Shown here piece after piece: positions 43,761-47,018 of a DNA stretch of 64,000 nt. The translations under genes and the position numbers were made by a program. The notes below the pieces were generated by a model. The model saw only the letters and a program-made list of their open reading frames with translations. It was not told the origin of the DNA and made no database searches. The stretch comes from Escherichia phage vb_EcoM-VR5: the sequence record NC_028881.1; one strand, written 5' to 3'. Position 1 is the stretch's first letter. Every line of letters begins with the position of its first letter.

Positions 43761-45062
43761 ATGACACAAACTACAGGTGAAAAAGAAGGTGTATTTTACG
43801 GTTATTCTCTTTATGATTTGAATAAAGAAAAACTAATAACTTTTGACGAATTACTTACAGGTATTAAAGGAGAGCCTGGAGAAAATGGCGATATCGGGCC
43901 ACAAGGAAACCAAGGTCCTGTAGGCCCCCAGGGTATTCAAGGGGATACAGGTCTTCAAGGAGTTCCAGGAGAAAATGGTGCTATTGGACCAAAAGGTATT
44001 CAAGGTGAAACAGGTGCTCAAGGTATTCAGGGACCACAAGGACTACAAGGAGACCCGGGAACGCAGGGTCCACAGGGTATTCAAGGTCTAAAAGGAGATA
44101 AAGGCGACCAAGGTATTCAAGGTGAAACAGGTGCTCAAGGTATTCAGGGTATTCAAGGAGTTCCAGGTGCCAAAGGAGATATAGGCCCAGTCGGTCCTGC
44201 AGGTTTAACATGGAAAGGTTCTTGGAATATTGCAACTGCTTACGCAGTTAACGAAGCCGTTGGCCACGATGGAAGCCTATATTTCGCCACAGCTGAAAGC
44301 ACCGGGCAAACTCCTTCATTAGGTAGCGATTACTGGGAAGTCTTAGCAACGGAAGGACCTGAAGGTCGGCAGGGCGTAGAAGGCGCGCAGGGTCCACAGG
44401 GTATTCAAGGTCCACAAGGTATTCAAGGACCTAAAGGTGATACGGGTGAAACTGGACTACAAGGTCTTAAAGGTGACAAAGGAGAGACAGGTTTAACCGG
44501 ACCCCAAGGACTACAAGGTATTCGTGGCGAACAAGGAGAAACGGGCGCACCGGGTATTCAAGGTATTCAGGGTATTGCTGGAGACCAAGGTCCTAAAGGT
44601 GACACGGGCGACAAAGGTGATACAGGTGCCACTGGTCCAGCCTACGAGTATAAAAAAGTATCTAGATTTACAATGCCTGCCGCCGGTATATCAAATTCTA
44701 CTCCTTTATTCGATTCAGGATTAACAATAAGTATGTTAGGCGTCAAAGCTAATACATTTAGATTTACCCTTACTAATACAGGTTCAGCGTCTAGAGTTAT
44801 TGATGGTGAAATAATTTATTTTGACCCGGACGGTACAGCAAAAAGATTTGTTGTTCATTTTTCAATAGCTGCTGGTGAGACAACCAATTTCGGTACGTAC
44901 ACGTATGCAATTACAACTCCCAGAGTTTTTACTTTAAATTTTAATGCTACTGGGACTACACAACACGCCCACGAAGTAAAATATTTTATAATAGGACGCG
45001 ACGGTTATACGGAAAATACTTCTGTTGGTGCTACTGTTACTATTGAAAAACTCTATAACTAA
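43761..45062 (+). CDS. Collagen-like protein: two Gly-X-Y triple-helix segments flanking a putative carbohydrate-binding (CBM5/12-like) domain, plus a C-terminal beta domain
   Basis: 433 aa; about 38 and 31 uninterrupted G-X-Y triplets; between them [30 protein letters not shown]...YWEVL fits the W..AY..G..V..G..Y.A....W pattern; AAGGA-coupled to the downstream gene. Confidence 0.7.
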
Positions 45063-45071
45063 GGACTACAA

Positions 45072-45890
45072 ATGGCTATTACATTAAGTCCATCTTCAAT
45101 AGACGTAGAATACGGTGACTCTTATACAGTCACTGCTAATATTCCAGATATTAGCCCTGGTTCATCTATTGTGTATAACTGGACTAAGAATAAAAAATTT
45201 ATTAGTTCCGGAACTAATGTATTCACTGAAATAGCATCATCGGTAGAAACATTCAGTATTGCGTGCCGAATTGAAATTATATCACCTGATAAAAACACTG
45301 AATATATTTTATCGGATTCTTGCTTGGTTAATGTTAGTAAAAACATAAAAGCGGACGGTATAAATTCTCAGCTAGTTTATTCACCGGATGTTCATAAAAT
45401 AGGTGACCAAGTTATTCTTTCTGTAGAATCCCACCATGTAGACCCTGGCTATATTAAAGGAGTTATTTGGAAAGATCCATCGGGTAATGTCGTGTCAATT
45501 GGTAAAGAATATACGCATAAGATTAAGACGACAGAAGATGTTGTAGATGTAAAAATAGATTTGGCTTCTGAAAATTATGCATATTACAATAAAACACTTC
45601 AAATTGTTCTTAAAGCTATTGAAGAAGATAATTCGGAGTGTAGTGTAAGATATATTCATCCTTTAGACCACAGGGATTCAGGATACATCTGGATGGGTTG
45701 GTGGGTTATGGACGAAATTGAAAGGGCTACGGTAGAAGGATTAAATTGGAAAGCGCCGGACGGTACTGACCTGAAGTATAAGTGCGACTTGAAAACTCTT
45801 TCTATAATGCTTGACTTATATAATAATGTTGAAGTACAAGAATCAAGGAATGGTTATATTCTAAACAGGGCAGATTTACTTCCAAAATAA
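45072..45890 (+). CDS. Hoc-like paralog: two Ig-like domains plus a Hoc-type C-terminal capsid-binding domain
   Basis: 272 aa; C-terminal YIHPLDHRDSGYIWMGWWVMDEI...VEVQESRNGYILNRADL aligns with the Hoc C-terminus on the opposite strand (YVHPLPVRSTAYIWCGWWVMDAI...VDVQESRNGRIVHRSAL). Confidence 0.7.
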   Translation: MAITLSPSSIDVEYGDSYTVTANIPDISPGSSIVYNWTKNKKFISSGTNVFTEIASSVETFSIACRIEIISPDKNTEYILSDSCLVNVSKNIKADGINSQLVYSPDVHKIGDQVILSVESHHVDPGYIKGVIWKDPSGNVVSIGKEYTHKIKTTEDVVDVKIDLASENYAYYNKTLQIVLKAIEEDNSECSVRYIHPLDHRDSGYIWMGWWVMDEIERATVEGLNWKAPDGTDLKYKCDLKTLSIMLDLYNNVEVQESRNGYILNRADLLPK

Positions 45891-45910
45891 AAAGGGCCGC
45901 AAGGCCCTTT
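45891..45910. terminator. Bidirectional terminator between the convergent hoc-like and hoc genes
   Basis: AAAGGGCC-GCAA-GGCCCTTT hairpin. Confidence 0.6.
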
Positions 45911-45914
45911 ATCA

Positions 45915-47018
45915 TTAATAGACGTAATCGTATATAATACCAGCTTCCAATGCCGAACGGTGGACGATACGACCGTTACGAGATTCCTGTACATCAACTT
46001 CCGGGTAATCACTAAGCATTTTGGCTAATACCGCCAGATGACAATAATATGGTGTATTCTCTTTAGTGGCTTTTTTCCAATCTGTACTTTCAGATGTTAA
46101 TTTCTGAATGGCGTCCATAACCCACCAACCACACCAAATATACGCAGTACTACGAACAGGAAGTGGATGTACATAAATTAAAGGACATTCTTCTGGAACA
46201 ACAGGCTCTGCTTCTGCCACCGTAACAGACTTATTACCTGATTTAACTGAATTTGTAAAGCCTGTTTGCGATGCTGTAACTTCACAAGTATATGACTTCA
46301 AGCCTTCAGTGGATTCCGTTATTGCTCTTGTTGCTTCTGTTGAGTTGTCGTCCCATTTATATGCAAGAGTAGCGCCAGGAATAGCAGGGGACACAGAAGC
46401 TGTCAAATTGAATGGAACATCAACCGTCGCAGTAGACGGGCCTGAAATCTCAACAGTGAACTCAGGAAATGTATTGTTTTCGACCGTAACAACTACTGCA
46501 TCAGGATTAATAACTTGATTGTCATAATCTGCCGCAGAAACGGTAATTTGGCAAGTTAAAGAAACCGGTCCTGCAACAGTAGCGGTACGAGTAATATCTT
46601 TAGTAGTTTCACCAGTAGACCACAAATATGCTATTGTAGCTCCACCTGGTTCACCTGTTACATTAGCCGAAGCGTTATATTCCTGACCAACTTTAACAGT
46701 AGGAGTGGAAGTTGTTAATGTTGCAGTTGCAGCCATAGTCTTATTATTAACCGTGATGGTTGTTTGAGCCTCTGCCGTTTCAGGCTCTCCTTCTTCCGGC
46801 GTTGTGGTGGCAACAACTTTAATTACTTTTGAACCTGCTGGCCCAGCTGCAATATAATCCATAGTAGCAATAACAGAATCTTGTGGAACATCATCAACGG
46901 TCCATACAAAAGATTCGGTACCAGCGACAGCGGCTCCAGCTCCAGTGGCAGTAAAATTAGTTGTTGCACCTATAACCGCTGTAGGTGTTAAAGGGGCAAT
47001 TGATACAGTATAAGCCAT
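45915..47018 (-). CDS. hoc: Hoc, highly immunogenic outer capsid protein (three Ig-like domains plus capsid-binding domain)
   Basis: 367 aa; Ig-like repeats; C-terminal capsid-binding block; adjacent to inh as in T4. Confidence 0.85.
   Translation of the reverse strand: MAYTVSIAPLTPTAVIGATTNFTATGAGAAVAGTESFVWTVDDVPQDSVIATMDYIAAGPAGSKVIKVVATTTPEEGEPETAEAQTTITVNNKTMAATATLTTSTPTVKVGQEYNASANVTGEPGGATIAYLWSTGETTKDITRTATVAGPVSLTCQITVSAADYDNQVINPDAVVVTVENNTFPEFTVEISGPSTATVDVPFNLTASVSPAIPGATLAYKWDDNSTEATRAITESTEGLKSYTCEVTASQTGFTNSVKSGNKSVTVAEAEPVVPEECPLIYVHPLPVRSTAYIWCGWWVMDAIQKLTSESTDWKKATKENTPYYCHLAVLAKMLSDYPEVDVQESRNGRIVHRSALEAGIIYDYVY

Follow-up and report, generated by a model that had tools for sequence, protein, structure and literature searches.

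A collagen-like fibre gene paired with a second Hoc-type gene in T4-like phages: a candidate head-fibre cassette

Hoc, the standard example of a non-essential capsid adhesin, has been linked to adherence to mucus and to sensing of the environment, and phage display and vaccine design use it as a main platform. The head protein gp12 of phage SPP1 is small (about 64 aa), has a short collagen-like motif and binds directly to the capsid lattice. On this tailed-phage head it forms a collagen-like trimer that is considered to assist surface adhesion and is unneeded for stability (Zairi et al. 2014, cited in PMC7602432). Fokine et al. 2023 (PMC10385173) discussed phages that encode two Hoc-like proteins: the second Hoc of phage Muldoon has 314 aa and two Ig domains, and the GDSL lipase of phage PG7 shows that a module of another kind can be displayed on the Hoc binding domain. 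The pairing of a fibre gene with a Hoc-type gene is unmentioned in that paper, where the words "collagen" and "VR7" each occur 0 times.

Here we describe such a pair in a 64,000-nt stretch of Escherichia phage vb_EcoM-VR5 (NC_028881.1), referred to below as the window, which is about 96% identical to coliphage VR7. The individual genes are not new. GenBank has listed VR7ORF196w since 2010 as a collagen-repeat protein and VR7ORF197w as "similar to T4 Hoc," and JS10 gp176 and gp177 since 2008 as "tail fiber-like protein" and "hoc"; with the double Hoc discussed in 2023, the word "undescribed," used of this module in an earlier note on the window, fits the cassette as a unit only. It is the constant pairing of the fibre gene with the second Hoc gene (hoc2) that suggests an undescribed way of mounting adhesive fibres on the phage head.

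Layout of the locus and its candidate expression signals

The three open reading frames that the earlier note had recognized, for a collagen-like fibre protein, Hoc2 and Hoc, are all present (Table 1). The product of canonical hoc matches phrog_1149 at 2e-115, and its VR7 counterpart is annotated as hoc. The fibre gene and hoc2 are co-oriented, with 9 nt between them; hoc2 has its own Shine-Dalgarno sequence and runs convergent to canonical hoc, and the two share a hairpin terminator. This hairpin is likely bidirectional, the terminator tool having scored it on the minus strand only, and its equivalent was found 3' of hoc2 in 8 of the 8 T4-like loci compared. In T4-like genomes the fibre gene is located between 24.3 and hoc. 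The products of the three ORFs are acidic (pI 4.4-4.9), as has also been reported for Hoc.

Upstream of the fibre gene, the octamer AATAAATA has one mismatch to the T4 late-promoter octamer TATAAATA and is kept in VR7, ESCO10 and VR26. The form CATAAATA is found at -41/-42 in Kosakonia phage 305 and in the metagenomic locus L008, and there is no late-promoter octamer within 120 nt upstream of the fibre gene in KIT01 or JS10. As promoter evidence, these octamers hint weakly that the cassette may be expressed late.

Table 1. Positions of the cassette, its parts and neighbouring features in the window
Feature	Position	Strand	Details
gp23 loop equivalent to T4 Gly326-Arg344	38686..38742	+	outside the cassette, given for context
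Candidate late promoter, AATAAATA	43731..43738	+	30 nt 5' of the fibre ATG
Fibre gene (collagen-like protein)	43761-45062	+	433 aa ORF
Fibre N-terminal module, putative docking or trimer-nucleating	43761..43859	+	aa 1-33
Collagen segment 1	43860..44210	+	aa 34-150; 39 uninterrupted G-X-Y triplets
Mid-fibre globular domain, CBM5/12-like	44211..44354	+	aa 151-198; about 48 aa between two putative helices
Collagen segment 2	44355..44642	+	aa 199-294; 32 uninterrupted G-X-Y triplets
Fibre tip domain and stop codon	44643..45062	+	aa 295-433
hoc2 (Hoc paralogue)	45072-45890	+	272 aa ORF
Hoc2, two Ig-like domains	45072..45635	+	aa 1-92 and 93-188
Hoc2 capsid-binding domain and stop codon	45636..45890	+	aa 189-272
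G+C-rich hairpin, AAAGGGCC-GCAA-GGCCCTTT	45891..45910		between convergent hoc2 and hoc
Canonical hoc	45915-47018	-	367 aa; three Ig-like domains and capsid-binding domain

Hoc2 and the parts of the fibre protein

Hoc2 is 29% identical to the neighbouring Hoc (E 8e-32), and phmmer matched it to the T4 Hoc chain in the PDB (5vf3_Z/8t1x) at E 3.9e-29. It also matches phrog_1149, "Hoc-like head decoration" (1.8e-57), and phrog_21694. Residues 163-268 align with T4 Hoc 262-366 (E 1.5e-22), pairing RYIHPLDHRDSGYIWMGWWVMDEI...VQESRNGYIL with YVHPLPHRSSAYIWCGWWVMDEI...VQESRNGYII; the capsid-binding domain of T4 Hoc comprises residues of about 281-376. Identical in this alignment are Tyr293, His295, Arg300, Trp309, Trp310, Asp313 and Glu355-Ser-Arg-Asn-Gly359 (T4 numbering), residues that were reported in T4 Hoc to contact gp23 or to hold the binding loop (PMC10385173). 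The partner surface is conserved as well: in the gp23 loop equivalent to Gly326-Arg344, where Hoc docks on the capsid hexamer (PMC10385173), 18 of 19 residues are identical to those of T4, and Asp336, Pro337 and Arg344 are kept. Judged by this sequence conservation, Hoc2 very probably binds the capsid. In the AlphaFold2 model (pLDDT 84.9), an alpha/beta C-terminal domain comes after two beta-sandwich domains; the match to Pfam Ig_2 is weak, and Foldseek retrieved two-Ig Fc receptors (E 5e-9) and RB49 Hoc (3shs, E 7e-8). The earlier note's two Ig-like domains and its C terminus "clearly homologous" to the Hoc capsid-binding domain are thus both borne out. Its proposal of a phage with two different Hoc-type decoration proteins holds at the level of coding, as both are encoded with intact capsid-binding domains, and their joint presence on the virion is a prediction from these sequences.

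The two G-X-Y regions of the fibre protein are collagen-type sequence, as had been proposed: both registers are perfect, the protein scores 123 bits with Pfam Collagen (PF01391) against a cut-off of 27.2, and the chance of 39 perfect triplets, ~0.08^39 or ~1e-43, excludes a chance origin. The NCBIfam models Lcl, SclA and SclB match the collagen parts only (139 bits versus a cut-off of 500). As triple helices, the segments would be about 33 nm and 27 nm long; in the monomer AlphaFold2 model their pLDDT is below 50, as expected of a monomer. The number of repeats in segment 1 varies (39 triplets here, 50 in VR7), and its coding region contains short DNA tandem arrays. The N-terminal module (AlphaFold2 pLDDT only 57-71) is kept in T4-like homologues and in CR3_011 of the Vequintavirinae.

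For the globular domain between the collagen segments, a carbohydrate-binding CBM5/12-like motif had been suggested. This stands as a plausible relation at the family level: CBM_5_12 (PF02839) is the domain's sole Pfam match, below threshold, with the whole protein scoring 12.5 bits and the excised domain 17.8 bits versus a cut-off of 26.2. It is likewise the sole Pfam family match in 9 fibre homologues; most homologues score 14-23 bits, and the only one above 26.2 (P0021, 28.3 bits) has two copies. The pattern W..Y..D.V.Y.G..Y.A...P...W is kept across the fibre family, the conserved positions of the alignment being, in order, W/F, Y, D, V, Y/F, G, Y/W, A, P and W; the aromatic signature used for comparison, that of CBM5/12, is W...Y..GD.V.Y.G..Y.A...W. 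AlphaFold2 predicts four strands with pLDDT 92-94. The best match of the domain in a PDB sequence search had an E value of about 1.3, with NodB-domain proteins only, and there was no CBM5/12 structure among the listed fold matches, a list dominated by the larger tip domain.

The tip domain belongs to a rare, swappable family and is an Ig-like beta-sandwich of generic type. A C1q/TNF-like jelly-roll of the BclA type was considered for 44643-45059 and rejected because the fold is an Ig-like sandwich. Between close relatives, the tip domain and the repeat number are exchanged, whereas neither the N-terminal module nor the Hoc2 capsid-binding domain changes, which is the pattern expected of an anchored adhesin.

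As a whole, the fibre protein matches phrog_5073, "tail fiber protein" (E 1.5e-111, residues 1-424 versus profile positions 59-512 of 519), and belongs to PHROG 5073 by sequence membership. PHROG labels are inherited annotation, not experimental, and by gene position the family lies outside tail, baseplate and fibre modules in T4-like, CR3 and Rogue1-like genomes.

Pairing of the two genes and distribution of the fibre family

We compared 13 T4-like loci: the window, VR7, ESCO10, VR25, VR26, KIT01, JS10, Kosakonia phage 305, ABTNLsp5, FBB1, AS4 and the metagenomic loci L008 and L018. The named phages among them are phages of Escherichia, Salmonella, Kosakonia, Erwinia (FBB1) and Aeromonas (AS4). 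The earlier note had suggested searching for the pair in other T4-like genomes, and it recurs without exception: all 13 loci have a fibre gene encoding the N-terminal module, collagen and the CBM5/12-like knot, directly followed by a co-oriented Hoc-type gene. Spacing ranges from an 8-nt overlap to about 30 nt, and Hoc2 identity drops to about 23%. In 12 of the 13 loci the fibre ORF is intact with a perfect G-X-Y register, and its N-terminal and knot domains are conserved across genera. The fibre gene of the VR7 GenBank record is frameshifted near its 3' end; if the frameshift is real, the fibre is dispensable. This constancy of pairing favours a functional link between fibre and Hoc2.

Several loci depart from the layout of the window. 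In FBB1 the pair has been relocated together, directly after gp24. In Kosakonia phage 305 only a remnant of canonical hoc persists, with stop codons in it and the capsid-binding domain missing, leaving Hoc2 as the sole intact Hoc; PEi20, a relative of this phage, lacks the cassette entirely. Overall, the cassette occurs in only about 20-30 of roughly 1,340 Hoc-encoding phage records, and the hoc locus of Erwinia phage Cronus has another large gene, annotated "EPS depolymerase."

There are two cassette lineages, and the type of the fibre N-terminal module agrees with the Hoc2 clade in all 10 sequences compared, an agreement that simple linkage can explain. The only single-Ig Hoc2, that of L018, retains domain 1. 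The N-terminal modules of the window and VR26 are 100% identical, and their Hoc2 capsid-binding domains about 90% identical at the nucleotide level, despite swapped Ig domains that are only about 30-35% identical. A constant module beside divergent Ig domains argues against a tight fit between them. Stoichiometry was also counted against a Hoc2-fibre contact, Hoc being a monomer and the fibre an expected trimer.

The fibre family extends to unrelated phages. A near-identical N-terminal module occurs in the Vequintavirinae, in CR3_011 of Cronobacter phage CR3, a member of PHROG 5073 (2.8e-125), whose gene follows the major capsid gene and precedes the neck and tail genes. In profile-profile comparison the module also matches the N terminus of CR3_010/CB7_12 (probability 85%, E 7e-6), and in the CR3 relative CB7 neighbouring proteins, including CB7_12, were detected in virions by MS/MS (PMC7344957). 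In three Rogue1-like siphovirus contigs the fibre-family gene lies between a cement/decoration gene and the major capsid gene. The head-module stretches examined of CR3, CB7 and the Rogue1-like siphoviruses showed no Hoc-type gene. In T7-like contigs, members of the family adjoin lysis genes rather than capsid genes. The CBM5/12-like knot is also found in Streptomyces, Rhizobium and T1-like phages, in proteins whose annotation is minor tail or tail fibre protein. The Vequintavirinae module without a Hoc-type gene in the stretches examined, the T7-like members beside lysis genes and the PHROG label were all counted against the head-fibre reading given below, in which Hoc2 is the adaptor.

Interpretation and comparison with known systems

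We read the locus, with a probability of about 0.5, as an accessory two-gene head-fibre adhesin cassette of some T4-like phages, in which Hoc2 is the likely capsid adaptor. Hoc2 would be a working Hoc paralogue whose C-terminal domain docks at gp23 hexamer centres as T4 Hoc does, sharing or competing with canonical Hoc for roughly 155 sites, or replacing it, with its two Ig-like domains facing outward. The fibre would be a collagen-like homotrimer of about 60-70 nm, comprising from base to tip a 33-aa docking module, a 33-nm helix, a three-domain CBM5/12-like knot, a 27-nm helix and the exchangeable tip. It is probably a virion component, and the odds that it sits on the head, its most probable place there, are about even; attachment via Hoc2, the most likely adaptor, is a tentative step beyond that. 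Once displayed, the fibre may stick weakly, multivalently and reversibly to glycans on surfaces (such as host polysaccharide, mucus or biofilm matrix) and so raise encounter rates, extending the role that Hoc is thought to play. More specifically, the outer Ig domain of Hoc2 could hold the N-terminal module, giving a "hairy" head, with the family carried on Vequintavirinae and Rogue1-like heads by other anchors; we regard this fuller version as doubtful.

It is rather unlikely that the fibre belongs to the neck, whiskers or tail as an accessory fibre, akin to fibritin or the side tail fibres, with hoc2 adjacent only through the plasticity of the rnlB-hoc interval and Hoc2 decorating the head independently. 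The hoc locus does take in other large genes, such as that of Cronus, but direct pairing in 13 of 13 loci, with some stop/start overlaps and in distant genera, exceeds what a shared hot spot predicts, and the FBB1 pair moved as one. On the one hand, collagen motifs are common in tail fibres (PMC7344957), the knot recurs in annotated tail proteins of Streptomyces, Rhizobium and T1-like phages, and phrog_5073 and many collagen-containing PHROGs carry the tail fibre label. On the other hand, such labels are not experimental, the fibre protein has no recognizable T4 fibre-attachment domain, and in two other phage groups the family is encoded in head modules, not in tail-fibre modules.

Both proteins could instead decorate the head independently, Hoc2 at hexamer centres and the N-terminal trimer of the fibre on the lattice at a three-fold or quasi-six-fold site. 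A symmetric capsid site would suit a trimer better than a monomeric Hoc2 does, and a collagen-like trimer, SPP1 gp12, occupies hexamer centres (PMC7602432), although a fibre at hexamer centres would here compete with Hoc and Hoc2. The invariance of the N-terminal module while the Hoc2 Ig domains change also fits independent binding, as do the siphovirus and Vequintavirinae members in head-module stretches without a Hoc-type gene; however, nearly the same module beside capsid proteins as different as gp23 and that of the Vequintavirinae is hard to reconcile with lattice recognition, and the constant Hoc-type gene 3' of the fibre gene is left unexplained. We consider this arrangement unlikely. 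Least probable is that only Hoc2 matters and the fibre gene is a non-structural or decaying passenger, expressed but unassembled or being lost. The VR7 frameshift, the absence of the cassette from PEi20 and its rarity among Hoc-encoding phages point that way; against it are the intact ORFs and perfect registers of 12 of 13 loci, the conservation of the N-terminal and knot domains across genera, and the modular exchange of tips, which implies selection for function.

If Hoc2 is a socket for an exchangeable 60-nm fibre, heads can bear long-range adhesins reaching beyond 18-nm Ig strings, many "tail fiber protein" annotations within head modules are accounted for, and a ready non-covalent route for placing trimeric cargo on T4-type capsids exists. 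For therapeutic coliphages of the VR7 and JS98 groups, the cassette could also affect host range, mucus or biofilm retention and immunogenicity. Should the family be displayed on several kinds of phage head, it would constitute a widespread modular capsid-fibre system, so far unrecognized; if the link is genomic only, what is left is already known: a collagen-like gene with a second Hoc paralogue next to it.

Among known systems, the second Hoc of Muldoon is a short paralogue of the same kind as Hoc2. Hoc2 differs from the Muldoon and PG7 cases in being convergent to hoc, second of a pair and always behind a collagen-like fibre gene, and, unlike the PG7 fusion, any cargo displayed by Hoc2 would be a separate polypeptide. 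The likeness to SPP1 gp12, as described in the review PMC7602432, is one of function and architecture only; the fibre differs in having 433 aa, 71 triplets, a knot in mid-fibre and a globular tip. BclA of the Bacillus anthracis exosporium, streptococcal Scl and Legionella Lcl share its layout of N-terminal anchor, variable collagen stalk and globular C-terminal head, a layout that forms a hair-like nap. The fibre protein differs from this group in having no LPXTG motif and no signal peptide, and its tip is an Ig-like sandwich, whereas the BclA head is C1q/TNF-like. Its gene is set apart from those of the PHROG 5073 tail fibres by its position outside the tail-fibre module in T4-like, Vequintavirinae and Rogue1-like genomes. 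The gp8.5 head fibres of phi29 and collagen-containing tail fibres are, as we propose for this protein, trimeric virion fibres with a role in adhesion; those of phi29 are alpha-helical coiled coils, whereas the fibre described here is collagen-like.

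Locus and expression signals

The collagen-like gene (hereafter the fibre gene) and hoc2 lie among the head genes of a T4-like phage, where this plus-strand pair is convergent with canonical hoc. The open reading frames described in the earlier note were recovered with the same lengths and strands. The window is ~96% identical to Escherichia phage vB_EcoM_VR7 (Gaprivervirus), whose record names the two genes "collagen triple helix repeat domain protein" (VR7ORF196w) and "similar to T4 Hoc" (VR7ORF197w).

Features of the fibre-hoc2 neighbourhood, in gene order
Feature	Position	Strand	Product
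gp23	37711-39270
gp24 paralogue 1	39688-40968		426 aa
gp24 paralogue 2	40969-42249		426 aa
rnlB		-
DUF2774/24.3 gene		-
Mini-ORF	43679-43732		17 codons
Fibre gene	43761-45062	+	433 aa
hoc2	45072-45890	+	272 aa
hoc	45915-47018	-	367 aa
inh	47045-47728	-
uvsW		+

The tandem duplication of gp24, the capsid vertex protein, is annotated in VR7, VR26, and JS10 and was also seen in ESCO10 and a metagenome locus (L008); all of these carry the fibre-Hoc2 cassette too. Inh matches phrog_3259 over its N-terminal ~50 residues. A Vequintavirinae member of this family (CR3_007 of Cronobacter phage CR3; L007 988-1602) is encoded directly after the major capsid gene, and the C-terminus of CR3_007 matches the Inh PHROG. 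Thus, the region around hoc and inh in T4-like phages has both an Inh-like domain and the collagen-like fibre family in common with the head module of Vequintavirinae.

A hairpin terminator is present downstream of hoc2 in all eight T4-like loci inspected for it. Late-promoter-like octamers carry one mismatch each and are present in some relatives but not all; we therefore dropped late transcription as a proven feature. Sigma-70-like sites do not exceed their frequency in shuffled sequence. In KIT01 and JS10, the Shine-Dalgarno context aacttgtaaacaggag...ATG immediately precedes the fibre start. It is also found in the window (within 43645-43760), where it opens a mere mini-ORF (MPDILERKDLLYIPLVP, then a stop codon) and is separated from the real fibre start by ~80 nt that include the late-promoter-like AATAAATA. 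The 5' region of the fibre gene in Gaprivervirus thus looks like the product of an insertion or remodelling.

Hoc2 and its association with the fibre gene

Hoc2 shares 29% identity with the adjacent Hoc (E = 8e-32) and matches the solved T4 Hoc chain with E = 3.9e-29. The T4 Hoc residues that contact gp23 or hold the binding loop have been named (Fokine et al. 2023, PMC10385173), and in an alignment with T4 Hoc all of them are identical in Hoc2: Tyr293, His295, Arg300, Trp309, Trp310, Asp313, and Glu-Ser-Arg-Asn-Gly 355-359. These matches bear out the Hoc-type capsid-binding domain that the earlier note had assigned to the 272 aa protein. The AlphaFold2 model (mean pLDDT 84.9) consists of two beta-sandwich domains and an alpha/beta C-terminal domain, and Foldseek searches with it retrieved two-Ig-domain receptors and RB49 Hoc. 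On the receiving side, the Hoc-binding loop of gp23 (T4 Gly326-Arg344) is identical at 18 of 19 positions in the window phage. In Kosakonia phage 305, canonical hoc is a remnant with stop codons and without the binding domain, and the Hoc2 orthologue is intact, which indicates that Hoc2 can be the sole Hoc. This remnant (L005 4835-5197, minus strand, 363 nt) comprises an Ig-domain fragment with stop codons and the last ~10 codons (LEAGTIYSYVY, then stop); the related phage PEi20 shows the reverse state, with canonical hoc alone and no cassette. Hoc2 is very probably a genuine capsid-binding paralogue of Hoc, and presumably it docks at the same hexamer-centre site.

We compared 13 T4-like loci in which the fibre gene encodes the N-terminal module, collagen, and the mid-fibre domain termed the knot: the window, VR7, ESCO10, VR25, VR26, KIT01, JS10, ABTNLsp5, Kosakonia 305, Erwinia FBB1, Aeromonas AS4, and two metagenome loci (L008 and L018). 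A co-oriented Hoc-type gene directly follows the fibre gene in every one, at spacings from an 8 nt overlap to a ~30 nt gap and with Hoc2 identity down to ~23%; the pair flagged in the earlier note for a search of other genomes is therefore conserved. In FBB1 the pair sits elsewhere, immediately after gp24, which suggests that the two genes move as a unit. The cassettes fall into two lineages: type 1 of the fibre N-terminus occurs with Hoc2 clade 1, and type 2 (FGHDGRG...) with clade 2, which has a conserved LxLWDVxYPAxGxY motif in the first Ig domain. Type and clade agree in all 10 sequences compared. We set this covariation aside as proof of contact between Hoc2 and the fibre: it is inseparable from linkage, and the per-domain identities (34% and 20% for domains 1 and 2 in clade 2; 31% for both in clade 1) are a weak signal. 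The only single-Ig-domain Hoc2 (n = 1) retains the first Ig domain. Pairing, joint movement, and the type-clade match fit a physical partnership, although linkage alone could also yield them.

Architecture and exchange of the fibre protein

The two long Gly-X-Y segments seen earlier are indeed collagen-like. Residues 34-150 and 199-294 form 39 and 32 perfect triplets, respectively, with a Pfam Collagen score of 123 bits; the Y position is rich in Gln and the X position in Pro, Ile, Asp, and Glu. The predicted triple helices would span ~33 nm (helix 1) and ~27 nm (helix 2). An NCBIfam search gave matches to collagen adhesins, all below threshold. The N-terminal 33 residues are conserved among the T4-like homologues as well as in proteins of Vequintavirinae.

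The ~48-residue knot (aa 151-198) is modelled with pLDDT 92-94. CBM_5_12 is its sole Pfam match, in the window and in nine homologues, but the window knot scores 17.8 bits against a cut-off of 26.2, which only one homologue (P0021) exceeds, and the best PDB sequence match has E of only ~1. We therefore downgraded the carbohydrate-binding assignment: "CBM5/12-like" is a fair description, but not a statement of family membership. Searched against 1.84 billion representative proteins, a profile of the tip (the C-terminal domain, aa 295-433) recovered just 20 relatives, all of them C-terminal; each full-length one retrieved belongs to a collagen protein, and nearly all also have the knot.

Parts of the cassette differ in their conservation. 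The number of helix 1 triplets varies among close relatives (39 in the window, 50 in VR7), consistent with short DNA tandem arrays inside the collagen segments (44073-44158, 44391-44438, and 44553-44576; periods 9, 18, 27, and 36). The tips of VR7/ESCO10, VR26/K305/JS10, and KIT01 are divergent members of one family, and the fibres of AS4, FBB1, and ABTNLsp5 have a different distal region. Nucleotide similarity between the window and VR26 covers 43429-44218 (N-terminal module and first helix) and resumes at 45643, precisely at the capsid-binding domain of Hoc2; the stretch in between, with the distal fibre and the Ig domains of Hoc2, is replaced throughout. Such constancy of the N-terminal module and capsid-binding domain is expected of anchoring elements, and such variability of the other parts of exposed, ligand-facing ones. 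The VR7 fibre gene as deposited (HM563683; L001 3332-4742) ends early, with the last ~50 residues of the tip in another frame; tblastn recovers 100% identity in two pieces, and no such break affects the gene in the window or in ESCO10. The break is due either to faulty sequencing or to a genuine frameshift in VR7.

Proposed placement on the particle and relation to known systems

Indirect evidence favours the head as the location of the fibre. In three Rogue1-like siphovirus contigs, the cement/decoration gene and the major capsid gene flank a fibre-family gene with a different, weakly DUF1737-like N-terminal anchor (~100 aa). In two of them (L010 4835-5917; L012 3384-4670), it is adjoined in this interval by a GDSL lipase matching phrog_9703 ("head decoration"). 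The N-terminal part of this PHROG is also matched by the Hoc2 capsid-binding domain (a Hoc-lipase fusion of PG7 type), a hint that the capsid may display lipase and fibre as alternative cargos. CR3 encodes the homologue CR3_011, whose N-terminal module is almost the same; its gene comes after the major capsid gene and ahead of the neck genes, and genes for two more collagen proteins adjoin it. CR3_008 (L007 1663-4944; 1093 aa) contains knot-like inserts in repeated copies, and its C-terminus gives a weak foldon-like (Fibritin_C) match; CR3_010 (L007 5637-5948; 103 aa) combines a related N-terminal module with a short stretch of collagen. In CB7, a relative of CR3, mass spectrometry confirmed the orthologue of CR3_008 in virions, and MS/MS of virions detected the proteins encoded beside the fibre homologue, including CB7_12 (PMC7344957), whose N-terminus is related to the fibre module (hhalign probability 85%). 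On the other hand, fibre-family members in T7-like contigs adjoin lysis genes, and the PHROG label of the family is "tail fiber".

We propose that Hoc2 binds gp23 hexamer centres and that the particle bears a trimeric fibre, most likely on its head and most likely held by Hoc2. Such a fibre would give the phage multivalent, low-affinity adhesion to glycans over a long reach. More speculatively, three Hoc2 molecules on neighbouring hexamers, whose centres in T4 are ~14 nm apart, could converge on one fibre trimer. We put the head-fibre reading as a whole at about 0.5; the adaptor step is more tentative, somewhat short of an even bet. The main objection is that the fibre N-terminal module is identical even between phages that share only ~30-35% identity in the Hoc2 Ig domains; the module also occurs in phages with no Hoc-type gene seen in the head-module stretches examined. 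On both counts, the fibre may instead bind the capsid directly, or another conserved partner.

The earlier note named the locus as its best candidate for an undescribed module. The term applies to the cassette: neither its conservation nor the placement of the fibre family in head modules across lineages was found in a full-text literature search, from which the VR7 (Arch Virol 2011) and JS98 (PMC2168658) papers were absent, and the Kosakonia and Yersinia Gaprivervirus papers mention neither hoc nor collagen. It does not apply to the two genes or the two-Hoc idea, which are already public. At the hoc locus of Erwinia phage Cronus (L024 5785-9908), a pair of very short Hoc-like genes (177 and 128 aa) is followed by an ORF of 117 aa and by a gene of 926 aa with the annotation "EPS depolymerase"; this arrangement may be a further case of a large trimeric protein encoded beside minimal Hoc-type proteins. 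Second, shorter Hoc proteins have been described in Muldoon and PG7 (Fokine et al. 2023, PMC10385173); thus, Hoc2 is not new in kind.
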